Translations under genes and position numbers: made by a program | The notes under the pieces: model-generated | The model's database searches: none | What the model was told of the DNA's origin: nothing | What the model saw: only the letters and a program-made list of their open reading frames with translations | NCBI GenBank assembly: GCA_030018495.1 | Contig: JASEFS010000018.1 | Span: 7,591 to 71,590 of the forward strand | Origin: Deltaproteobacteria bacterium | GTDB lineage: Bacteria; Desulfobacterota; Desulfobaccia; Desulfobaccales; 0-14-0-80-60-11 | Direction: 5' to 3' | Length of the DNA: 64,000 nucleotides | In this document: piece after piece, positions 714-12,558 of the stretch | Layout: every line of letters starts with the position of its first letter | Position numbering within the stretch: position 1 is the stretch's first letter

Positions 714-1136
714 CTAACGCACGATGAGGACGCTACAAGGCGCGTGCCGGCTGACTTTTTCAGCAGTGGTGCCCAAGAAGGCGGCCCAGACCCCGGAGAG
801 CCCGGTATGGCCCACCAGCACTAAGTCGAACTTCCCTTCTCTGGCCACCTCCACAATAGTCTTGGCGGGATGTCCGGGCCGCATGATGGTTTTCAGCTCT
901 ATGCCGGCCTCTTGCGCCTGGGTGCGGGCTGATCTCAAAAGCTCGCCGTACTGCTGATCAGCAAACGCTTTTTCCTCCTGGACTTCATCAATGGTGCCGG
1001 CAAACTTGGGCAAGCCTTCCTGCACCGACAAGGCAACAAGCTCAGCCCCGTGAATTTTTGCCAGATTAATTCCCGCGTTCAGGGCTTTATTGGCCCCCTC
1101 CGAGCCGTCGTAGGCCAGCAAGATTTTTTTGTACAT
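714..1136 (-). CDS. universal stress protein (UspA family)
   Basis: 140 aa. N-terminal KKILLAYDGSE and C-terminal VGHTGLSG...VSRHAPCSVLIVR are typical Usp ATP-binding signatures. Confidence 0.85.
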   Translation of the reverse strand: MYKKILLAYDGSEGANKALNAGINLAKIHGAELVALSVQEGLPKFAGTIDEVQEEKAFADQQYGELLRSARTQAQEAGIELKTIMRPGHPAKTIVEVAREGKFDLVLVGHTGLSGVWAAFLGTTAEKVSRHAPCSVLIVR

Positions 1137-1322: not shown

Positions 1323-2528
1323 TTACTCATCCGGCATATGCAGGAAGTGCTCGGTGGAGCCGATAAATTCCAGCTCGTATTCCCGGCCCAAGTTTACTTC
1401 CCGGGGCTGGAACCACACCTGTGCGATAATGGTTGGAACCACCGCCGAGGCGATGACGCCCGTCACCAAAATGGAGTACTGGTCTTGGTCAACATAGCCG
1501 TGGGTAAGGCCGAAGAGAGCGGAGATGCTGCCGAAAGTCAGGCCGGTTGCCATGAGCAGGGTGGTATAATTGCTCTCCCGCAGAGGCAGGCCGAAGAGCC
1601 GGCAGAGAGGCCAGATGCCCACAATTTTAGTAATCATCTTGGCCCAAAAAAGTGCCACGAGAATCCCAAAGCCGGCCACCAGGGCGGGCAAAGACACAAG
1701 GGTGCCGGCCTTGATGAAAAAGAAGGGGGTGAGCAAGGCGAAGGTGATGGCCCGCATGCGGTGGAGCATCACCTTGTCCTGAACGAACAGTCCGGCGATG
1801 ACCATGCCGAACAAGTAGGCTGGCAAGACCGCTTCACTGCGGGCCGTGACCGCCAGGGCCCCCAAGATGCAAAGCACCAGGAATATGAATTTAATTTCCG
1901 GCTCAATGACCCGGCCGCTCCAACGGGCAAAGGCCCAGCGGCAGATGGAGGGCAGCCGCCACAAGGCCACCACGGTCACCACCACAAAGACTATCAGCCA
2001 ACGATCATACTCGGCAAAAATCAACCCCAGGGCCAACACGGTCCCCAAATCGGTAACAAAGCAGGCCGTCAGGATGAGCTTTCCCAATTCGGTGTTGTTC
2101 AGCCCGGTCTCCACCATCACCGCGTAGACCACGGCCATGGAAGTGGTGGACAGGGCAATGCCCGCGATCTGGGCGGATTGCGGCTGCCACCCGCCGATGT
2201 AATAAGCATAGGCCATGCAGCCCAGGAAGGGGAACAGGAACGACATGGCGCCGATGGCCAGGCTGGGTCTCCACAGGCGTCGAAAGGCCTCGGGCTCGAT
2301 CTCGGCCCCGGCCAGGAAGGTCAGGACCACCGAAGCAAAGCCGGCCAAAAAATTGATCCAGGGGGTGGGCTTGAAAATGCCCCAGCCGAAGTAGGCGCCC
2401 AGGTTGCCCGCCACAAATCCCAGAAAAATCTCCACCAGCGCCACAGAAATGCCCAAGCGTATGGAGATGAGGCTGGCTAAAAGGGCTACACCGATCCAGG
2501 CCGCGGCGGTATACCAAACTTGTTCCAC
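1323..2528 (-). CDS. cation:proton antiporter (Na+/H+ exchanger family, CPA2-like)
   Basis: 401 aa, about 11-12 hydrophobic helices, sequence style of Na_H_Exchanger/Kef-type membrane domains; no C-terminal KTN domain. Confidence 0.8.
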   Translation of the reverse strand: MEQVWYTAAAWIGVALLASLISIRLGISVALVEIFLGFVAGNLGAYFGWGIFKPTPWINFLAGFASVVLTFLAGAEIEPEAFRRLWRPSLAIGAMSFLFPFLGCMAYAYYIGGWQPQSAQIAGIALSTTSMAVVYAVMVETGLNNTELGKLILTACFVTDLGTVLALGLIFAEYDRWLIVFVVVTVVALWRLPSICRWAFARWSGRVIEPEIKFIFLVLCILGALAVTARSEAVLPAYLFGMVIAGLFVQDKVMLHRMRAITFALLTPFFFIKAGTLVSLPALVAGFGILVALFWAKMITKIVGIWPLCRLFGLPLRESNYTTLLMATGLTFGSISALFGLTHGYVDQDQYSILVTGVIASAVVPTIIAQVWFQPREVNLGREYELEFIGSTEHFLHMPDE

Positions 2529-2574: not shown

Positions 2575-2868
2575 TTACGATGAGTCTTTGGCATCATCAT
2601 CGACGATGGTTTCCCATTCCTCTCGAAAAGAATCCTTGTCAGTGAATGTCAAAGCAACAGTTTCCTCTGACTCGGGAGGCATATAATCCGATTCTTTCTG
2701 CAATACCAGCTTGACTGCCGGGATGTGCTCGGACTTGTCCTCTTGTCTCATTTCCTCAGCGCGCACATCTTCGGTGCCGGTTGAGTCCCAGGGAATCCTG
2801 CGGCCTCTGAGCTTCTGGATAAGGGCATAGGCCAGCAAGCCCACATAAATGATTACGACCAGGTCCAT
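2575..2868 (-). CDS. small membrane-anchored acidic protein (97 aa), first gene after fluoride riboswitch 1
   Basis: The ORF track starts at 2925, but that extension overlaps the riboswitch terminator. ATG at 2868 (MDLVVIIYVGLL...) is preceded by a GGGAGG SD. One N-terminal TM helix, then an acidic tail. Confidence 0.55.
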   Translation of the reverse strand: MDLVVIIYVGLLAYALIQKLRGRRIPWDSTGTEDVRAEEMRQEDKSEHIPAVKLVLQKESDYMPPESEETVALTFTDKDSFREEWETIVDDDAKDSS

Positions 2869-2902: not shown

Positions 2903-3001
2903 AATAAAAAAACCCCTGTCCCCACCGGTAGTGAGAACAGGAGTCATCAGCTCGAGGCGCAGTTCGGCCGGTACGTTACCCGCCGGGCGGACTCCATCAC
3001 C
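2903..3001 (-). promoter_or_regulatory. fluoride riboswitch 1 (crcB motif, variant with enlarged internal region) plus competing terminator
   Basis: Minus strand: GGUGAUGGAGUCCGCC ... GAAC ... GCUGAUGACUCCUG. The P1 loop GGAGUC is complementary to downstream GACUCC (pseudoknot). CUCCUGUUCUCAC-UACCG-GUGGGGACAGGGG-UUUUUUU forms a terminator whose 5' arm reuses the pseudoknot strand. Confidence 0.7.
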
Positions 3002-3009
3002 TGGTTGAT

Positions 3010-3037
3010 TTTATAAACCCAGGCACCGGAATGTCAA
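3010..3037 (-). promoter_or_regulatory. sigma70-like promoter for riboswitch 1 operon
   Basis: Minus strand TTGACA (3037-3032), 16 nt, TATAAA (3015-3010), 8 nt before the first aptamer G at 3001. Confidence 0.6.
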
Positions 3038-3071: not shown

Positions 3072-3100
3072 TTGACAAAAATAGGAGGCACTCTTAAATT
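3072..3100 (+). promoter_or_regulatory. sigma70-like promoter for riboswitch 2 operon
   Basis: TTGACA (3072-3077), 17 nt, TAAATT (3095-3100), 10 nt before the aptamer start at 3111. Confidence 0.6.
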
Positions 3101-3110
3101 AAAATTAATC

Positions 3111-3196
3111 GGCAATGAGGTCTGCCGCAAACCGCCCCGCTTGCTCAGGGCGGGGATGATGACTTCTGTCCAACGGGCAGAAGTCATTTTTTTTCT
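3111..3196 (+). promoter_or_regulatory. fluoride riboswitch 2 (crcB motif) plus competing terminator
   Basis: GGCAAUGAGGUCUGCC-GCAAAC-CGCCCCGC(UUGCUCA)GGGCGGGG-AUGAUGACUUCUG. Loop GAGGUC pairs with GACUUC. Terminator AUGACUUCUG-UCCAACGGG-CAGAAGUCAU followed by U8 overlaps the pseudoknot strand. Confidence 0.85.
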
Positions 3197-3225: not shown

Positions 3226-3510
3226 ATGAAGGAGTTTGATGAAATCATTCGGGAAAAGGGGCTGCCCCGCGTGGGGCAGACGGTGCGCAGCAAGAAGTAC
3301 GGCACTCTTTGGCGAGTCATGGAAAAAAGAGAAATATGGCAGTCCATCGCCGATGACCCCCAAACCGGGGAACCGCGTATGATACCGGCTATTTTTTTAT
3401 CTTACTGGAAAATGCAGGAGGGCGGCCAGCCCGGTACCGGAAAAGTCATGGGATTTACCTATACCCTCTATGACAACACCTTTGCGACGCACTGGGAGGT
3501 TGTGCCCTGA
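3226..3510 (+). CDS. conserved small protein of unknown function (94 aa), paralog A, directly behind fluoride riboswitch 2
   Basis: AAGGAGGG SD 6 nt upstream of the ATG. About 72 of 94 residues are identical to the 9770..10057 product by manual alignment. Confidence 0.8.
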   Translation: MKEFDEIIREKGLPRVGQTVRSKKYGTLWRVMEKREIWQSIADDPQTGEPRMIPAIFLSYWKMQEGGQPGTGKVMGFTYTLYDNTFATHWEVVP

Positions 3511-3645: not shown

Positions 3646-3864
3646 ATGGGGAAGATTATCGAGCTCCGCCTGACCAAGAAGGCTGTTTACCGGGCCGCGG
3701 TAAAGGAAATGAATAAAATGTATCAGCTCTCTGCGGGCGGCACGGACCCGATCATCGATGAGGCGTCCAGATGGGCGTTTGAAAGAGGCGAAATAGACGA
3801 AGTGATATGGAAGGATTGGGGGTCTTACTGCGTAATGATGTTAAACAGAATAGGAAAAATCTAA
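3646..3864 (+). CDS. hypothetical small protein (72 aa)
   Basis: ATG at 3646 preceded by GGAAGGAGG; the longer track ORF from 3574 lacks an SD. No family recognised. Confidence 0.5.
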   Translation: MGKIIELRLTKKAVYRAAVKEMNKMYQLSAGGTDPIIDEASRWAFERGEIDEVIWKDWGSYCVMMLNRIGKI

Positions 3865-3958: not shown

Positions 3959-5740
3959 ATGGCTAAGTATGACCCCACTAAAATGGAAGACTGGCAAATC
4001 GGTGAGCTCGCCGAAGAGGAGCTGGATTTCAACCGGCAATGTGACAAAATCGGCATCCTGCCCGAAGAGCGCATCCCCATGGGTCGGAAAATCGGCAAAG
4101 TTGACTACATGGCCATCCTGGAGCGCCTCAAGGACAGACCGGACGGCTATTATATCGATATCACCGCCATCACCCCTACTCCCCTGGGAGAGGGTAAGAC
4201 CGTGACCACCATGGGGTTGATTGAAGGCCTGGGCAAGCGGGGCGTGAACGTGGGCGGTGCCATCCGCCAGCCCTCGGGCGGCCCCACCATGAACATCAAG
4301 GGCACCGCGGCGGGCAGCGGCATAGCGCTCTTGATCCCGATGACCGACTTCTCCCTGGGACTCACCGGCGACATCAACGCCATCATGATCGCCAACAATT
4401 TAGCCATGGTGGCCCTGACCTCCCGGCTGCAGCACGAGTTCAATTACGATGATGAGCAACTGGCCAAAATCCCTCTCAAACGCTTGAACATCGATCCCAG
4501 AAGGGTGGAGATGAAATGGTGCTTTGACCTGTGCGCCCAGTCGCTGCGCAACATCACCATCGGCCGGGGCAGCAAGATGGACGGCTACATGATGGACTCC
4601 GGCTTCGTCATCGCGGTGGCCTCGGAAGTGATGGCCATCCTCTCCATGTTCAAAGACCTGCCGGACCTGCGCAAGAGGTTGGGCGAAATCACCGTGGCCT
4701 ATGACAAGAAGGGCAACCCGATTACCACCGAGGACCTGGAGTGCGCCGGGGCCATGACCGCCTGGATGTTTAAGACCATCAACCCCACTCTGTGCGCCAC
4801 CGTGGAATTGCAGCCGGTCTTCGTGCATGCCGGGCCCTTCGGCAACATCGCGGTGGCCCAGTCTTCCATCGTCGCCTGCCGGACCGGTCTGAAGCTCTTT
4901 GACTACCATTGCACTGAGTCCGGCTTCGGCTGCGACCTGGGCTTCGAGAAATTCTGGAACATCAAATGCCGGGAAAGCGGGCTCAAACCCAACGTAGCGG
5001 TGCTTACCAGCTCCATCCGGGCCCTCAAGCACCACGGGGTCAACGCCGGGGCTCTGCCCGTCCGGCCGGGAAAGCCCATTCCCCAGGAGTATTACACCTC
5101 CACCCCCGAGACTTTGGCCTGGCTGGAGGACGGCCTCAAGAACCTGGTCCACAACATCAATATCGTCAAGCAGTCCGGCATCAAGCCGGTGATCTCCATC
5201 AACCGCTTCCCCACCGATACCGATGAGGAGGTCAAGATGGTCAAACGGTGCGCCGAGGCCGAAGGGGTCCGGGCCGCGGAGGGCAACTACTGGCGCTATG
5301 GGGGTGAGGGAGCCCTGGAATTGGCTGACGCGGTCATCGACGCCTGCAAAGAGAAGGTGGACTTCCGGTTCCTTTATCCTACGGAGATGCCGCTGCGCCA
5401 AAAGATTGAAACCATCGCCACCAAAGTGTATGGAGCCAGCGGAGTAGTTTATACGCCCGAAGCTGAGGCCAAGGCGAAGGCTTTTGAAGCCGATCCCAAG
5501 TTCAAAGATTATCACGTAATGATGGTGAAGACGCATCTGTCGTTGACCCACGATCCCACCCGGAAGGGCGTCCCCAAGGGCTGGGACCTGGCGGTCCGGG
5601 ACTTTCTGCTGTACAGCGGCGCCAAGTACATCTGTCCATGTACCGGCACCATCTCACTTATGCCCGGCACCAGCTCCAACCCGGCCTTCCGGAGGGTGGA
5701 CGTGAATCTCGAGACCGGCAAACCTTACGGCCTGTTCTAA
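3959..5740 (+). CDS. fhs: formate--tetrahydrofolate ligase (divergent FTHFS family member)
   Basis: 593 aa. Contains [10 protein letters not shown](V)TT P-loop, [37 protein letters not shown] and a C-terminal GLF, collinear with canonical FTHFS. The glycine-rich loop is altered ([18 protein letters not shown]). Confidence 0.85.
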
Positions 5741-5906: not shown

Positions 5907-6437
5907 CTAAATTTTGGCTTGGGTGCGCTCATAAACTTTTCTTGCAAAATCATCAAGCATCTTTTCACAAATTTTTATCTTCTCCAAAGCGGTTTTCCTA
6001 AGAGGAGCCTTAATTACATCCCGTTTTTCCACTTTTCTGAACCACTGCTTTAATTTTTCCAGTTCTTCCTCGTTTTCCTCGACTTCCGCGAAGATGAAGT
6101 TCTGTCTTTGAATTTCATATTCCATCTCTTTAAAATAAGCTTCACACTTGTCTATAATTTCCTTATACTCTTCATTTCTGGACTCGGTAAAAGCTTCGAC
6201 GATGAGTTCTTCTTGCTCTTTACTGAGAATTTTTCCCACAATTAACAAGCCCATTCCTTTGAATCCTTTAATATTTTCGATAAGCTTATTGAATTCATTG
6301 ACTCGTTCTGAAGAATACGGGGCCACCCATACCGTCTGGTAGTTGACGGCTCCAATTTTTCTCAACTGCCGCCAAACAAAGACCCTGGCTTTGGAAGGGG
6401 TTGTCGGCAAACTATACGAAAAGAACAGCCATTTCAT
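5907..6437 (-). CDS. ChrB N-terminal-domain-like protein (176 aa)
   Basis: N-terminus MKWLFFSYSLPTTPSKARVFVWRQLRKIGAV resembles the ChrB_N signature (SLPt..s..R...WR.L...GA). The gene is markedly AT-richer than its neighbours. Confidence 0.55.
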   Translation of the reverse strand: MKWLFFSYSLPTTPSKARVFVWRQLRKIGAVNYQTVWVAPYSSERVNEFNKLIENIKGFKGMGLLIVGKILSKEQEELIVEAFTESRNEEYKEIIDKCEAYFKEMEYEIQRQNFIFAEVEENEEELEKLKQWFRKVEKRDVIKAPLRKTALEKIKICEKMLDDFARKVYERTQAKI

Positions 6438-6563
6438 GGAAATACGCCGCCTACCCCCCAGAATGCGAAGTCCCGTCTCCGGGTGGCGTCGGTCGGAAGG
6501 AAATCCGGCAGGGAGCCACCCGACTACTCACTGAGTCCATGCGATTGCGGCATTATATCATCT

Positions 6564-7529
6564 TCAAATCTTCAGGCCCAACATGACTGTTCCGACCACG
6601 AACAGAACATAAAGGGCCATGAGGGTAATGCCCACCCAGCGAGGCGTATGGCCCCGCCAAACGATTATCAGCAAAATGAGCCAACTCAAGGCCACGGCGG
6701 GGAAAAAATAATCCAAAGCCACCGCTTCCACCGTCAGGGGGCGGATCAGGGCGCAAATTCCCAAGGTAAACAGCAGTTGAAAAAAAGAACTGCCCGCGAC
6801 GTTTCCGATAACCACTTCCGGGTGTCCCTTTTGGGCCGGGATGATGGCTTCCACCAATTCCACGGAATTGGCGGCGATGGCCAGCAGGGTCAAACCGAGA
6901 ATGGTCTCCGCGATGCCGGTCCAGATTAGGACCGCTTTCACCCCCTTGATCACCAGGAGAGCGCCCACCACCAAGCCGATGAGCCCGCCCACCAACATGA
7001 GGGGGAAGTGCCAGGCCGGCTCCCGGATGATCTTCTCCACCTCTTCTTCCGCTTCCTCAATCTCCTCCTTGGCAGCCCTGGTTCGCCGCAAGTCGGTGAT
7101 CAGGTAAGCCATGAAAGCCCCGTAAACTCCCAGGACAATAAAGCCATCGGGACGGCTGATCTCCCCGTCAAAGGCCAAAAGGAAAACCAGCAGGAGGACG
7201 CCGCCCAGCATCCAAATGTATTTCAGGGGGAAATCAGGGTGTCTGATGGGAAAAAGGGCCGCCGCCGAGCCCAGGGCGAGAAATATTAAAAAGATAACCG
7301 TGCCCAGGATACTGCCGAAGGCCAGGGCCGTCAGGTGCTGGTAAGCGCCGATGACTGCCGGGGCAAATTCCTCCAGGTCGATGCTGATGATCAGCATGGC
7401 CAGAACAAACGGCGTTACTGCCAAACGGGCGGCCAGGCCGACCAACCCCTCTACCAGGTACTTGGCCGCGAAGATGAGGATCAACACACCGACCAGCAAT
7501 GAGCCGATATTTATATAAAGATTTTCCAC
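6564..7529 (-). CDS. Ca2+/cation antiporter family protein (CaCA, YrbG-like)
   Basis: 321 aa, two hydrophobic halves separated by an acidic loop (EEIEEAEEEVE). Alpha-repeat-like GSILGTVIF and GNVAGSSFF motifs. GTG start with a GGAGG SD. Confidence 0.75.
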   Translation of the reverse strand: MENLYINIGSLLVGVLILIFAAKYLVEGLVGLAARLAVTPFVLAMLIISIDLEEFAPAVIGAYQHLTALAFGSILGTVIFLIFLALGSAAALFPIRHPDFPLKYIWMLGGVLLLVFLLAFDGEISRPDGFIVLGVYGAFMAYLITDLRRTRAAKEEIEEAEEEVEKIIREPAWHFPLMLVGGLIGLVVGALLVIKGVKAVLIWTGIAETILGLTLLAIAANSVELVEAIIPAQKGHPEVVIGNVAGSSFFQLLFTLGICALIRPLTVEAVALDYFFPAVALSWLILLIIVWRGHTPRWVGITLMALYVLFVVGTVMLGLKI

Positions 7530-7780: not shown

Positions 7781-7790
7781 CATCTACAAA

Positions 7791-7873
7791 GGTGATGAAG
7801 TCCGCCATAACCGCCCTGCCTTCCCAGGCGGGGATGATGACTTCTGTCCAGTAGCCGGGCAGAAGTTTTTTTT
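7791..7873 (+). promoter_or_regulatory. fluoride riboswitch 3 (crcB motif) plus competing terminator
   Basis: GGUGAUGAAGUCCGCC-AUAAC-CGCCCUGCC(UUCCC)AGGCGGGG-AUGAUGACUUCUG. Loop GAAGUC is perfectly complementary to GACUUC. Terminator ACUUCUGUCC-AGUAGCC-GGGCAGAAGU followed by U8. Confidence 0.85.
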
Positions 7874-7895: not shown

Positions 7896-9650
7896 ATGGG
7901 AACCTTTCAACAACTCCAGGAGGCCCTGGAGAGGCAGCTTACCCAATTGGCGCGCCTGCCGGAATTTCAGGGTCCCGGCTTGCCCCGGATTTTGGAGAAA
8001 CTGCGACAGAACCGCTTTCATCTGGTGGTGCTGGGGGCTTTCAAGCGGGGCAAAAGCACCCTGATCAACGCCCTGCTGGGCGACCCCATCCTGCCCACCG
8101 CCATCATCCCCCTGACTTCGGTGGTCACCATCCTCACCTATGGGGAGAGTCTGACCATCGAGGTGCGCTTCCATAACGGCCAGCGCCGGCAGATTTCCCA
8201 AGCCGAACTGGTGGATTACATAACCGAGAAGGGCAATCCCGGCAACCGCAAGGGAGTTCAGGAAGTCGAGATTACCTACCCTTCCGACTACCTCAAAGAA
8301 GGAGTGCGGATCATCGACACTCCCGGGGTGGGCTCGGTTTACAGCCATAACACCGACGTGGCTTATAATTACCTGCCCCAAGTGGACGCCGCCATCTTCG
8401 TGGTTACCGTGGACCCGCCCCTGTCCGCGGCGGAGCAGGAGTTTTTGCAGGATATCAGGGAGTTTGTCCACAAGATCTTTTTTGTCCTCAACAAGATTGA
8501 TTACGTGGAGGCCGCGGAGCGGCAGGAAGCCCTGGATTTCACCTCCCAGGTCCTGGCGGCCAACCTGGCAGCCTGCCCGGTGGCAATCTTTCCCCTGTCC
8601 GCCAAGATGGCCCTGGACGGCAAGACCAATGGCCACCCGGAACTCCTGGAGGCGAGCCTCCTGCCCCAATTCGAGGAGCACTTGCGCCAGTTCCTCTACC
8701 GGGAAAAGGGGCGGGTGCTGCTGATTTCCTGCGTCAGCGGGGCCTTGAAGGCCATCACCGACTCCACCCTGGCCCTCAAGGTGGAACGCCAGGCCAGCGG
8801 CCTGCCCTTGAAGGAACTGGAAGAAAAAATCGCCCGCTTTGATCTGGAATTGCAAGGACTGGAAAAAGAGCGGGAGATGTCCCTGCTCCTGCTGGACGGC
8901 CGGGTCAAAGGCGTGGTGGCGCAAGTGGACGCCGACCTGGAGGCTTTTAGAAAAGAAACCACCGCCCGTCTGCGCCGGGAGGTGGAGGCGACCTTCCAGC
9001 AAAAAAGCCGGGCCGCTCTGGACCTGCGGAAAGAGATGGAAGAATTCCTCTTCGCGGCGCTCAGAGATGTCTTCACCACTTGGCGGCGCCAGGAGATCGA
9101 GAAGCTTTCCCAGATATTGGCCGAGACCCACCAGGACTTCGCCGGCCGTATCAACGCCATCCTGGAGCGGCTGACCCAGTTGACCGCCCGCATCTTCGAT
9201 TTTTCCTTGCGGGGCTTTGCGGTGGAGGAAGCCTTCACGGATTTGCGGCAATTCTGGTTCAGGTTTAAGGAAGACCCGGTGGGGCTGGAAATACTGCAGA
9301 TGACCGTTACTTCCCTCTTGCCCAGGGCCCTGACCAAGGGGTTGCTCCTGAAAAAGCTGTTGGAAAATGTCACGGAGTTGGTGGACAAGCACTGCGGGCG
9401 GCTGCGCTATGACTTTCACCAGCGCCTCCAGGAGATTGCCCGGGACTTCCGCCAGACCTGGCTCGCCAGAATTGACGACACCACCCGGAGCATCCGCCAG
9501 GCCCTGGAGCGGGCCCGGGCTCAAAAGCAGACCAGCGCCCAGGCCGTCGCGGCCCGGGCGGGACAACTGGACCAGAGCCTGGCTGAAATCCTGAAGGCCG
9601 AAGCGCAATTGTTAGCCTTGAAGGAGCGCATTGAAGCGACCGTGCATTAA
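7896..9650 (+). CDS. dynamin-family GTPase (bacterial dynamin-like protein, 584 aa)
   Basis: GAFKRGKST (G1), IIDTPG (G3), LNKID (G4), then a long helical/coiled-coil C-terminal half. ATG at 7896 follows an AGGAGG SD; the track extension from 7752 overlaps the riboswitch. Confidence 0.8.
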   Translation: MGTFQQLQEALERQLTQLARLPEFQGPGLPRILEKLRQNRFHLVVLGAFKRGKSTLINALLGDPILPTAIIPLTSVVTILTYGESLTIEVRFHNGQRRQISQAELVDYITEKGNPGNRKGVQEVEITYPSDYLKEGVRIIDTPGVGSVYSHNTDVAYNYLPQVDAAIFVVTVDPPLSAAEQEFLQDIREFVHKIFFVLNKIDYVEAAERQEALDFTSQVLAANLAACPVAIFPLSAKMALDGKTNGHPELLEASLLPQFEEHLRQFLYREKGRVLLISCVSGALKAITDSTLALKVERQASGLPLKELEEKIARFDLELQGLEKEREMSLLLLDGRVKGVVAQVDADLEAFRKETTARLRREVEATFQQKSRAALDLRKEMEEFLFAALRDVFTTWRRQEIEKLSQILAETHQDFAGRINAILERLTQLTARIFDFSLRGFAVEEAFTDLRQFWFRFKEDPVGLEILQMTVTSLLPRALTKGLLLKKLLENVTELVDKHCGRLRYDFHQRLQEIARDFRQTWLARIDDTTRSIRQALERARAQKQTSAQAVAARAGQLDQSLAEILKAEAQLLALKERIEATVH

Positions 9651-9769: not shown

Positions 9770-10057
9770 ATGAAGGAGTATGACGAGATCATCCGGCAAA
9801 AGGGTCTGCCCCGCGTGGGACAGACGGTGCGCAGCAAAAAGTACGGTACTTTGTGGCGCGTCATGGAGAAAAAGGAGATTTGGCGCAACATCGATCCCGA
9901 CCCCCAAACCGGCGAACCCCGCATGGTCCCGGCCATCTACCTCCTTTACTGGAAGGTTCAGGAAGGAACCCCGCCCGGGGTAGGTAAAATGATGGGCTAC
10001 GAATACACCCTGTACGACAACACCTTTGCCTTAAACTGGGATATCGTCCAAGATTAG
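9770..10057 (+). CDS. conserved small protein of unknown function (95 aa), paralog B
   Basis: GAGGAGG SD; about three quarters identical to the 3226..3510 product. Confidence 0.8.
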   Translation: MKEYDEIIRQKGLPRVGQTVRSKKYGTLWRVMEKKEIWRNIDPDPQTGEPRMVPAIYLLYWKVQEGTPPGVGKMMGYEYTLYDNTFALNWDIVQD

Positions 10058-10068
10058 GCACCTGCCAC

Positions 10069-10106
10069 ACCCGGATTGGGGAGTATTCCGATCCGGGTTT
10101 TCTTTA
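10069..10106 (+). terminator. Rho-independent terminator after paralog B
   Basis: ACCCGGAT-(14 nt)-ATCCGGGT followed by TTTTCTTTAAATTT. Confidence 0.65.
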
Positions 10107-10150: not shown

Positions 10151-10786
10151 ATGACCCAAATTATCCTGGTGCGCCACGGCCAAACGCCCTGGAACAAGGA
10201 CAAGATTTTTCGAGGCTCCAAAGACATCCCCTTGAACGACCAGGGGCAAGAGGAAGCCCGCCTGGCCGGGGAATGGCTCAAAGGTGAGACCATTCATGCG
10301 GTTTATACTTCGCCTCTTTCCCGCTCCCGGGATACAGCCCTGGCCATTGCCCGACACCACGGCCTTCAAGTCACGGATTTGCCGGGTCTGAGCGATCTCT
10401 GCTATGGTGATTGGGAAGGTCTGCCCTTAACCGAGGTCAAAGTGAAATATGCTGACCTTTACCGCCAATGGGAGACAGCTCCCCACACAGTGCGCTTCCC
10501 TGGGGGTGAAACTCTGGAGGAGTTGCGCAGCCGCGCCATGGCTGCGGTAAATGAAGTAGTTCAACGACACCCCGGCCAGGTTGTCCTGCTTTCGGCTCAT
10601 CGCGCCGTCAACAAAGTCTTGATCGCCGCTCTCATCGGCCTGGACAATTCCCACTTCTGGCGCATCGGCCAGGATACTACTGCAGTCAACCGTTTTCACC
10701 TGGTCGGCGATGTCTGGCACATCATGTCGATAAACGATGCCTGCCACCTGCGCGGGATGCAACGCGGCGAGTACGTGGATTTTTGA
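10151..10786 (+). CDS. histidine phosphatase family protein (phosphoglycerate mutase-like)
   Basis: N-terminal ILVRHGQTPWN (RHG catalytic motif), later LSAHRAV. ATG at 10151. Confidence 0.8.
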   Translation: MTQIILVRHGQTPWNKDKIFRGSKDIPLNDQGQEEARLAGEWLKGETIHAVYTSPLSRSRDTALAIARHHGLQVTDLPGLSDLCYGDWEGLPLTEVKVKYADLYRQWETAPHTVRFPGGETLEELRSRAMAAVNEVVQRHPGQVVLLSAHRAVNKVLIAALIGLDNSHFWRIGQDTTAVNRFHLVGDVWHIMSINDACHLRGMQRGEYVDF

Positions 10787-10873
10787 TTCCTATCAGGGAG
10801 CTTCACCCTGTTCGCAGGCCAGCGCGCGATTTTAGCCGGTTATTGCCGGTTATTAATACATGGCCGCGGAGTC

Positions 10874-11290
10874 ATGAGATTTTATTGTCCCCGATGCTGG
10901 CAGGATTTTGACAAGGACTTGTCTCGCTGCCCTTACTGCGGCCTTGATATTCACGGATTCTGGAAGTCAAAAGATTACGTGGAAAAATTGATCGTCGCCT
11001 TAAACCATCCGGAACCGGAAACTCCCATCCGGGCGGCGTGGCTTTTGGGAGAACTCAAGGACCCCCGGGCAGTTGAGCCGTTAATCAGGTTGATAAAATA
11101 TACTGAAGATGTGTACATTGCCCAGGCCGCAGTTGAGGCTTTGGGGAAATTTGAAACACCCGAGTCCCTGCATTTCCTGGACACTTTGGTTCATCACCCG
11201 GTCAAAATGGTCAGAGACACGGTGCTGCAAATCCTGGCCTCGCGAAATCGACACCGCCCCTCAACTGAGAAAGGAAAGGAAAATGTATGA
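10874..11290 (+). CDS. zinc-ribbon plus HEAT-repeat protein (138 aa)
   Basis: CPRC...CPYC at the N-terminus, followed by PBS-lyase/HEAT-like repeats ([29 protein letters not shown]). Confidence 0.65.
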
Positions 11291-12558
11291 GTAATAAAAT
11301 CACTTCCGTCCAGGCCATGGAAATCCTTGATTCCCGCGGCAACCCGACGCTTCGTGCTTATGTAACTCTGGACAACGGCATTTCTGCCTCTGCCTCCGTG
11401 CCTTCCGGCGCTTCCACCGGCGAGAACGAAGCCGTGGAATTGCGGGATGGAGATAAAAAGCGCTATGGCGGCAAAGGCGTGTTGAGAGCCGTAGAAAACG
11501 TCAACACGGTTATCGCCTCCCGCCTCATTGGCCATGACCCCAGTCGCCAGGCCGAAATCGACCGCCTCCTGATCGAACTGGATGGCACCTCCAATAAAAG
11601 CAACTTGGGCGCCAACGCTATTCTGGGGGTGTCCATGGCGGTGGCCCGGGCCGCGGCGCAGTCCGCGCAGATCCCTCTTTACCAATATCTCGGTGGGGCT
11701 GGGGCAAGAAGATTGCCGGTCCCCTGCATGAACATCGTCAACGGCGGCCAACATGCCGACAACAGTGTGGACATCCAGGAATTCATGGCTGTTCCCATCG
11801 GCGCGCCTTCTTTCCGGGAGGGACTGCGTTACGTGGCGGAAACCTTCCATACCCTTAAGGGAATTTTGAAGGCTCGGGGCCTGGCGACCAGCGTTGGTGA
11901 CGAGGGCGGCTTCGCGCCGAATTTTTCCAGCAACGAGGATGCCATAGAAACGATCCTGCAGGCGATTGACAAGGCAGGCTACAAGCCCGGGGAGCAGATT
12001 GCCATTGCCTTGGACAGCGCCGCGAGTTCCTTTGCGCTGGATCGGGTCGGGGAGTACGACCTGAAGCGCTCCCGAGCCGGAAGAAAGACCAGCAGTGAGC
12101 TTATTGCTATGGCCGGCGAATGGCTCGAGAAATACCCCATCGTTCTCTGGGAAGACCCGTTGGCGGAAGGGGATTGGGAGGGATTTAAGCAGTTTACGGC
12201 TAAATATGGCGGGAAAATCGAAGTTGTCGGCGACGACATCTTTGTCACCAATACAAAATACATAGCCAGGGGGATCAAAGAAGGCACCGCGAATTCGGCG
12301 CTGATCAAGCTGAACCAGATCGGCACCGTAACTGAAACGATCGAAGCAGTGCGCATGTGCCGTGAGGCGGGTTGGCGCTATTTCCTCTCGCATCGGTCCG
12401 GAGAGACGGAAGACACCTTTCTGGCGGATTTTGCCGTCGCCATGGATGGGGGGCACCTCAAGACCGGCTCGGCAAGCCGCAGCGAGCGGATCGCCAAATA
12501 CAACCGCTTGTTGGAAATCGAGCAGGAGATTGGGAAAGAAGCTTTGTTTTACTGGTGA
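11287..12558 (+). CDS. eno: enolase (phosphopyruvate hydratase)
   Basis: 423 aa. [30 protein letters not shown] and [20 protein letters not shown] motifs. The ATG overlaps the upstream stop (ATGA). Confidence 0.95.

Follow-up and report, generated by a model that had tools for sequence, protein, structure and literature searches.

A small protein domain found in three fluoride-riboswitch units of a Deltaproteobacteria bacterium and at the C-terminus of Na+/H+ antiporters

The subject of this study is a family of small proteins that is encoded twice, as paralogs A and B, on a 64,000-nucleotide stretch of DNA from a Deltaproteobacteria bacterium of the Desulfobaccales (contig JASEFS010000018.1, positions 7,591 to 71,590 of the forward strand), referred to here as the window. 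In the open reading frame listing, both genes lie on the plus strand and start with ATG. Paralog A (3226..3510) encodes 94 aa (NCBI MDI6853913.1) and paralog B (9770..10057) encodes 95 aa (NCBI MDI6853919.1). BLASTP aligned the two proteins without a gap at 72 identities in 93 positions (77%; 91% positives; E 3e-57), the same 72 residues that had been counted by manual alignment in an earlier, sequence-only reading of this DNA. By the Nei-Gojobori method, the paralogs are separated by 0.17 nonsynonymous (dN) and 1.8 synonymous (dS) substitutions per site, the latter value being saturated, while comparison of each with its orthologs gave dN/dS of about 0.03–0.09. Both are therefore real genes under strong purifying selection. 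In the source metagenome-assembled genome (MAG), A, B and a third small gene, small2, are all deposited as 'hypothetical protein'.

An Rfam search of the whole 64 kb at the gathering threshold (34 bits for RF01734) detected three fluoride riboswitch aptamers and no other RNA family. Aptamer 1 (2931..3010, minus strand; 37.9 bits) carries an extra hairpin inserted after P1, whereas aptamers 2 (3102..3175; 44.2 bits) and 3 (7782..7853; 45.4 bits) are on the plus strand. An RF01734 aptamer coupled to a terminator is an ON switch that binds Mg-fluoride. Paralog A had been read as the first gene behind riboswitch 2, and the Rfam result agrees: aptamer 2 ends 50 nt ahead of its ATG, which is preceded by a GGAGG ribosome-binding site. 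A sigma-70-like promoter, TTGACA-17-TAAATT (3072..3100, +; pattern match only), lies just 5' of this aptamer, and a terminator-like stem with a T run (3158..3188, +) overlaps it as the putative expression platform. Riboswitch 3 has a terminator-like stem and T run of its own at 7839..7867 (+). The first gene of its unit, with an ATG at 7896, encodes a dynamin-like GTPase (7896..9650, +; Pfam Dynamin_N, E 1.9e-29). Paralog B starts 119 nt after the GTPase stop, and a pattern search of the window placed no terminator-like site between them. A hairpin of 13 pairs with a T-rich tail (10069..10098, +), 12 nt past the B stop, makes B the last gene before the operon terminator, as had also been proposed. 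All terminator calls in the window are at the level of pattern matches. On this layout both A and B would belong to the RF01734 regulon, each having a same-strand aptamer upstream, a terminator platform and no terminator intervening.

Riboswitch 1 precedes a third unit, on the minus strand. Its first gene (2575..2868, ATG at 2868), preceded by the ribosome-binding site AAGGGAGG, encodes a 97-aa protein with one N-terminal hydrophobic membrane helix, followed by RGRR and a soluble part. In hmmsearch this soluble part matched the C-terminal half of the A/B domain, profile positions 45–95, with E 1.6e-6 for a profile of standalone and antiporter-fused members (the latter are described below) and E 3.6e-7 for a fused-only profile. 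Thus, every one of the three units in the window has a version of the domain. The gene orders are A, small2 and formate–tetrahydrofolate (THF) ligase behind riboswitch 2; dynamin-like GTPase and B behind riboswitch 3; and half-domain protein, CPA2-type cation/proton antiporter (CPA) and universal stress protein behind riboswitch 1. In the riboswitch-2 unit, small2 (3646..3864, +) encodes a 72-aa protein without a family match that lies 3' of A-clade genes in 13 related loci, and the ligase gene (3959..5740, +; NCBIfam NF010032, E 7e-286) is syntenic in 17. The antiporter of the riboswitch-1 unit (1323..2528, −; Pfam Na_H_Exchanger, E 4e-36; NCBIfam TIGR00932) has 401 aa and no C-terminal domain, and the universal stress protein gene after it (714..1136, −; Pfam Usp, E 3e-33) keeps its position next to the Na+/H+ antiporter gene in related loci.

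Neither A nor B gave a Pfam-A, NCBIfam or PADLOC match above cut-off, the best being a sub-threshold one to Kelch_3 (E 0.03–0.08). A word-indexed search of 5.8 billion proteins yielded 585 homolog clusters. The 120 homologs listed from these are 67–89% identical and almost all 93–95 aa long; their sources are MAGs of Desulfobaccales, Syntrophobacterales and Nitrospirota. Not one of them carries a Pfam domain, and every named one is 'hypothetical'. Only 130 proteins were returned when 1.84 billion 50%-identity representatives were searched exhaustively with a profile, and the family is thus small and compact. Thirty-three columns are invariant in an alignment of 25 sequences. The most conserved loop, P69-G70-x-G72-K/R73, is glycine-rich and basic, with G72 invariant in 26 of 26 diverse members; the family alignment also holds invariant Trp residues and a conserved Arg21. 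Altogether four tryptophans are conserved and basic residues are abundant in the domain. A mobile or plasmid origin was discarded, as tblastn found no match among 72,556 plasmids. A fusion of the family to small2 in one reading frame (P0122, 214 aa) was likewise set aside as a single case that is probably a read-through or an error, since small2 homologs otherwise have about 72 aa. Four giant proteins (P0220, P0227, P0241 and P0244; 876–5538 aa) each contain 4–5 stretches with weak similarity to the beta2–beta3 region (E 1e-6 to 1e-4), and such stretches in giant actinobacterial proteins like P0220 are probably spurious repeats.

The AlphaFold2 (AF2) model of paralog A, with a predicted local distance difference test score (pLDDT) of 86, places a helix at residues 2–11 and strands at 19–22, 28–41, 51–62, 74–80 and 90–93. 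The domain is thus predicted to be an N-terminal helix followed by a small five-stranded beta barrel, for which an SH3-like fold would be a candidate, of about 90 residues in all. Foldseek, run against the PDB with a confident model, returned nothing significant, and sequence-profile searches of the PDB gave no match with either a narrow or a broad alignment. The sequence-only reading had recognised no motif in the protein and had called for profile searches and structure prediction; Pfam, NCBIfam, PADLOC and the PDB bear it out, returning no known family and a helix-plus-five-strand model that has no significant match. The domain would therefore be a new family for the databases. Neither A nor B matches CrcB or CLC profiles, and the model of paralog A is globular, without a long hydrophobic helix; as far as sequence and model can tell, A and B are not fluoride exporters of the CrcB/Fluc or CLC-F type.

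The association of the family with fluoride riboswitches was followed across genomes. One genome per species (185,579 species) was scanned, and the best 80 of the 159 relatives found yielded 77 loci, each with flanks of up to 6 kb. Rfam, applied to 12 loci, gave 31 RF01734 hits, with an aptamer about 50 nt ahead of the family gene in eight loci and about 1.9 kb ahead in two. A covariance model was built from 34 Rfam-verified aptamers and run over all 77 loci. A same-strand aptamer lies 43–223 nt upstream of the family gene in 22 of these and 1890–2136 nt upstream, ahead of the GTPase gene, in a further 28; the other 27 have no aptamer for the family gene. The arrangement is therefore conserved in 50 of the 77 loci, or about 50 of 72 evaluable ones, as five of the loci without an aptamer are cut by contig ends. 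At the Rfam gathering score, aptamers were confirmed in 10 of the 12 loci checked first and, for the covariance-model calls, in 12 of 12 further loci. Tblastn with the window proteins showed that the proximal class consists of riboswitch, family gene, small2 and formate–THF ligase or enolase, and the distal class of riboswitch, dynamin-like GTPase, family gene and histidine phosphatase. These are exactly the two arrangements of the window. The order of riboswitch, GTPase and family gene also occurs in the cultured Desulfoferrobacter suflitae DRH4 (locus L052). In a neighbour-joining tree, the riboswitch-proximal genes with a ligase context (A clade) stand apart from those that follow the GTPase (B clade), so A and B would be old orthologous groups rather than products of a recent duplication. 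The tree also contains a basal group and, in some genomes, a tandem extra copy.

Since genomes typically hold only a handful of RF01734 aptamers, the recurrence of two fixed aptamer distances over 50 loci cannot be put down to chance. Co-occurrence of the family with RF01734 had been put forward earlier as a check, with widespread homologs lacking any enrichment next to fluoride riboswitches as the outcome that would speak against a fluoride role. That outcome is not seen; an aptamer was present in 50 of the 77 loci. Judged from the sequences, the fluoride link is stronger than had been noticed, as it extends to antiporter fusions and to the third unit of the window, although 'effector' is a role that we infer for the family. 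A hidden riboswitch was discarded for eight of the loci without an aptamer (L001 among them), where a renewed search with filters off found none near the gene. Antiporter genes are controlled by aptamers with an additional hairpin inserted after P1. In four loci (L063, at 5509–5669 on the minus strand, L039, L046 and L050) the aptamer ahead of a fused antiporter, described below, is an RF01734 variant in which this insertion measures about 100 nt; it scores 29.5 bits, slightly under the gathering score, and has all core nucleotides.

The 77 loci contain 117 riboswitches in total. The first gene behind them encodes the family itself in 25 cases, an unfused CPA in 13, a fused CPA in at least 9, a CrcB-like protein in about 5 and the half-domain protein in 4, with single cases such as an H+-pyrophosphatase. 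With 35 of the 117, the dynamin-like GTPase gene is the one that most often comes first behind a fluoride riboswitch in these lineages, and the order of GTPase followed by B is kept in at least 28 loci. The window GTPase also matches the PADLOC LeoA/LeoBC models (E ~1e-19), a result that any dynamin-like protein of bacteria might give. An anti-phage defence system of the LeoA/LeoBC dynamin type was considered and discarded: B has no PADLOC match, the GTPase matches only generic dynamin models, and a fluoride riboswitch lies ahead of the GTPase–B unit. B-type genes in six loci (L042, L058, L061, L065, L067 and L074) have a conserved promoter-like element, TTGACA-N17-TTAxxT, about 80 nt upstream. 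Some of these genes follow a GTPase gene, and several in other genomes have no riboswitch. The element suggests an internal promoter at B-type genes that would act independently of the riboswitch. Because several such genes have a TTGACA-type promoter of their own and no riboswitch, expression of B may not depend solely on riboswitch 3.

A further setting of the domain was found in transporters. Several long proteins among the 130 representatives carry the domain at the C-terminus, and all of these are Na_H_Exchanger (PF00999) transporters; the domain makes up the last ~100 residues of these Na+/H+ antiporters, which are NHA2/NhaP-like. In P0170 and its relatives, PF00999 spans residues 7–380 and the domain about 400–491; paralog A is 41% identical to the P0170 tail (E 2e-23), and an AF2 model of P0170 shows the same order of one helix and five strands at residues 395–491. 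What tblastn had first returned as a third distant paralog proved to be the tail of such ~500-aa fused antiporters and was discarded. The membrane part of P0170 resembles the structures of NHA2 (31% identity, E 1e-16) and NhaP, and in NCBIfam the fused proteins come closest, by name, to NhaP2-type K+/H+ antiporters. The C-termini of NHA2 and NhaP are cytoplasmic. Each of the top 120 P0170 homologs is a full-length fusion whose annotation says no more than cation:proton antiporter, and the cultured species Desulfacinum infernum and D. hydrothermale are represented among them; the fused antiporter of D. infernum DSM 9756 is P0310. A scan of metagenome contigs with the fused tails detected at least 248 fused genes, and all 80 genes retrieved are fused forms of about 490–540 aa or are cut by contig ends. 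In 23 of them an aptamer lies 1193–1370 nt before the tail, which is directly before the start of the transporter; these comprise 20 of the 59 genes with enough upstream sequence and 3 more, which makes 23 of about 62 evaluable genes. Rfam confirmed the aptamer in 20 of 20 fused-gene loci checked. About one third of the fused antiporter genes thus stand directly behind a fluoride riboswitch. In the genome loci, the fused antiporters lie behind minus-strand riboswitches, divergent from the GTPase–B unit, and free copies share islands with fused genes. The window's own antiporter was discarded as an ortholog of the fused ones, being 25% identical and of a different CPA subfamily. In the metagenome loci (L078–L157), a RidA/YjgF-like gene occurs about 135 nt 3' of the fused antiporter in 26 cases, and a conserved open reading frame of 186 aa, of a type without an assigned function, occurs 5' of it in 15.

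The riboswitch is absent from a part of the family. Nine 50%-identity representatives outside the main cluster were sampled, of which 6–7 could be evaluated. Two of them (P0121 and P0125) have an aptamer upstream, and 4–5 of these deep-branching proteins have none in the 135–590 nt of upstream sequence. One riboswitch-less deep representative is followed by a gene of the FTCD_C type (methenyl-THF cyclohydrolase-like), and another adjoins gcvT/gcvP (loci L171 and L162). Similarly, in loci L049, L053, L071 and L073 (at about 6000–7300) a riboswitch-less family gene is followed by an FTCD_C gene. A second, weaker and recurrent theme is that of folate one-carbon enzymes beside family genes, with the ligase in 17 loci, FTCD_C in 5 and gcvT in 1. 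Enolase follows an A-clade gene in two loci. Members of the A and B clades, and about one third of the fused antiporters, show a strong fluoride link that does not extend to the whole family, as deeper-branching relatives lack the riboswitch and adjoin folate one-carbon enzymes.

This second theme invites an explanation in which the free proteins serve, as accessory subunits or protectants, the adjoining fluoride-sensitive enzymes of phosphoryl transfer and folate one-carbon metabolism, namely formate–THF ligase, the methenyl-THF cyclohydrolase-like protein, enolase and the GTPase, with fusion to antiporters being secondary. The ligase and enolase genes behind A-clade members, FTCD_C after five riboswitch-less relatives and gcvT/gcvP beside one would agree with it, as would the position of B between the GTPase and a histidine-phosphatase (phosphoglycerate-mutase-like) gene. 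It would leave the abundant antiporter fusion and the membrane-anchored half-domain unexplained. Moreover, the folds of the partners are unrelated to each other, and none of these enzymes is fused to the domain among the 130 representatives. The explanation is therefore held to be unlikely.

The riboswitch-less members also raise the question of hitch-hiking, in which the family would consist of general stress or housekeeping small proteins that reside in the fluoride islands of some related lineages and take no part in tolerance. A riboswitch is missing in about one third of the loci and in most of the deep-branching representatives that could be evaluated, several B-type genes have their own promoter, and the sampled lineages are phylogenetically close. 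Nevertheless, aptamer spacing is fixed across two old orthologous clades whose dS is saturated, the antiporter fusions show an independent riboswitch link in different metagenomic lineages, and three or more versions of the domain occur within one island. Hitch-hiking is accordingly given only a slim chance. The domain rather appears, from its genomic distribution, to have been recruited repeatedly into the fluoride-stress regulon of Desulfobaccales, Syntrophobacterales and relatives.

These data may be accommodated, tentatively and at a little below an even chance, by an undescribed cytoplasmic regulatory or adaptor module that acts on its fusion or operon partner. A rise in cytoplasmic fluoride would load the aptamers with Mg-fluoride, relieve termination and allow transcription of all three units. 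The domain, being neither enzyme nor transporter, would dock on a partner at the cytoplasmic face of the membrane. The fused form would act in cis on the antiporter, whereas the target of the free form, in trans, would be the antiporter induced alongside it, the dynamin-like GTPase or the folate enzyme. Under fluoride or acid stress, either form would tune the activity of its partner. A non-catalytic module that works by contact with a partner is favoured because the domain is small, has no enzyme signature and is found free, membrane-anchored and as a transporter tail; Pfam, NCBIfam, Foldseek against the PDB and PDB profile searches revealed neither a catalytic signature nor that of a known family. 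The C-terminal tail is also where the regulatory domains of CPA transporters are usually located, as in RCK_C, CNBD or CHP1-binding tails.

Several observations weigh against the adaptor proposal. In their operons the free copies directly adjoin the GTPase or the folate enzyme rather than an antiporter, and no more than about half of the loci contain any CPA gene within 6 kb. Because one genome can have both free and fused copies, a free gene is not just a split form of the fused domain. The riboswitch-less relatives that adjoin FTCD_C or glycine-cleavage genes point to a role broader than fluoride. Finally, the AF2 model of P0170 is of moderate confidence (pLDDT 69) and silent on an interface.

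A peripheral membrane-binding or targeting module has also been considered. Under fluoride or acid stress, such a module would recruit the dynamin-like GTPase, among other partners, to the membrane in order to remodel or repair it. Outside its free form the domain is always located at the membrane, where it either forms the tail of a transporter or follows a single-pass anchor, and the four conserved tryptophans, the many basic residues and the GTPase that always precedes B would all suit such a function. The tryptophans may, however, merely form the core of the barrel, A-clade genes pair with a soluble enzyme, and the domain shows no lipid-binding motif or structural match. Membrane targeting as the principal role is thus judged improbable.

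Another alternative is that the domain itself binds fluoride, Mg- or metal-fluoride, or another small anion, the free protein serving as a buffer or sensor and the tail as a gate of the antiporter. Recruitment into fluoride-riboswitch units in three independent architectures could be so explained, and the glycine-rich basic loop with its invariant G72, the invariant Trp residues and Arg21 would be a candidate site, since loops of this kind may often bind anions. Direct binding is nonetheless doubtful: the domain has no known fluoride-binding motif and no structural match, riboswitch-less relatives stand beside folate enzymes, and expression is already gated by fluoride, so that a second sensor would be unneeded. 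A bolder and rather improbable form of the idea is a protein-based fluoride (or Mg-fluoride) sensor that allosterically switches antiporters in cis, and the dynamin-like GTPase and folate enzymes in trans. If true, this would be the first protein domain dedicated to regulation by fluoride binding and would add a post-translational layer on top of the riboswitch; the high frequency of Na+/H+ antiporters in fluoride regulons would likewise be explained.

The adaptor proposal may be compared with systems that are already known. RCK_C/TrkA_C tails, as on NhaP2/CvrA and CpaA, are also small cytoplasmic C-terminal domains (about 80–100 aa) on transporters of the Na_H_Exchanger fold. These tails regulate transport by ligand binding, and CpaA is a receptor of cyclic di-AMP. 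In contrast, the domain described here has no PF02080 or other Pfam match, the fused proteins matching only PF00999; it is predicted to consist of one helix and five strands, occurs also as free 94-aa proteins and is linked to fluoride riboswitches. Its likeness to RCK_C-type tails would therefore be one of position only. CHP1 on NHE1 and the PII-like SbtB are further small cytoplasmic proteins that sit on a transporter face or on several targets and modulate activity, and fold matches of the fused transporter part include the NHE1–CHP1 and the regulated SLC9C1/SOS1 structures. Their folds (EF-hand and ferredoxin-like) are unrelated to that of the domain, whose own interaction is putative. FeoA, the SH3-like partner of the GTPase-transporter FeoB, offers an analogy only; it is a small beta-barrel of about 75–95 aa with a presumed regulatory or adaptor role beside a GTPase and a membrane transporter. 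It has no sequence or Foldseek similarity to the domain, and its partners and regulon differ.

Classes of genes associated with fluoride riboswitches include exporters, Na+/H+ antiporters, enolase, pyrophosphatase and others, the antiporters being the second most common class (PMC11139923). Compared with this known regulon (CrcB/Fluc, CLC-F, antiporters, enolase, pyrophosphatase and Usp), the family is alike in that its gene lies directly behind RF01734 and its islands also hold genes for CrcB-like proteins, antiporters, Usp, enolase and H+-pyrophosphatase. It differs in being a soluble protein with no exporter or enzyme signature, and it would thus add an accessory module to a regulon and to a transporter class that are both known already. 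The domain is not mentioned in the searchable fluoride-riboswitch literature, although it may appear as an unnamed listing in Baker et al. (2012); the same literature contains no paper that pairs fluoride riboswitches with dynamin, nor one that pairs them with formate–THF ligase. Little is known of the fluoride regulon beyond exporters and a few overproduced enzymes, and here an unannotated domain ties riboswitch-linked antiporters to a GTPase unit and to a formate–THF ligase unit. The role of riboswitch-controlled antiporters also becomes directly testable, by use of the transporter with and without the domain.

A few features of the surrounding DNA may be added. The two plus-strand fluoride units of the window are separated by minus-strand genes (5907–7529) for a ChrB_N-domain protein and a Na+/Ca2+ exchanger-family (CaCA) protein, for which Rfam found no riboswitch of their own in the window. 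Past the terminator of B, at 10151–12558 (+), are genes for the histidine phosphatase, a HEAT-repeat protein and enolase; no aptamer lies ahead of the window copy, and the gene order is kept in related loci. The small2 family is narrow, with 105 clusters that are all of about 72 aa and without a family match. Some loci are dense fluoride islands: L019 (12.3 kb) has seven RF01734 hits at the gathering score and L011 has five, and L012 is dense as well, with aptamers on both strands and often in back-to-back divergent pairs. Behind the aptamers at 8467–8539 (+) of L012, 2739–2801 (−) of L018 and 3989–4049 (+) of L011, the first genes, seen as N-terminal sequences only, resemble a membrane H+-pyrophosphatase, a dihydroxy-acid dehydratase and an MFS transporter respectively.

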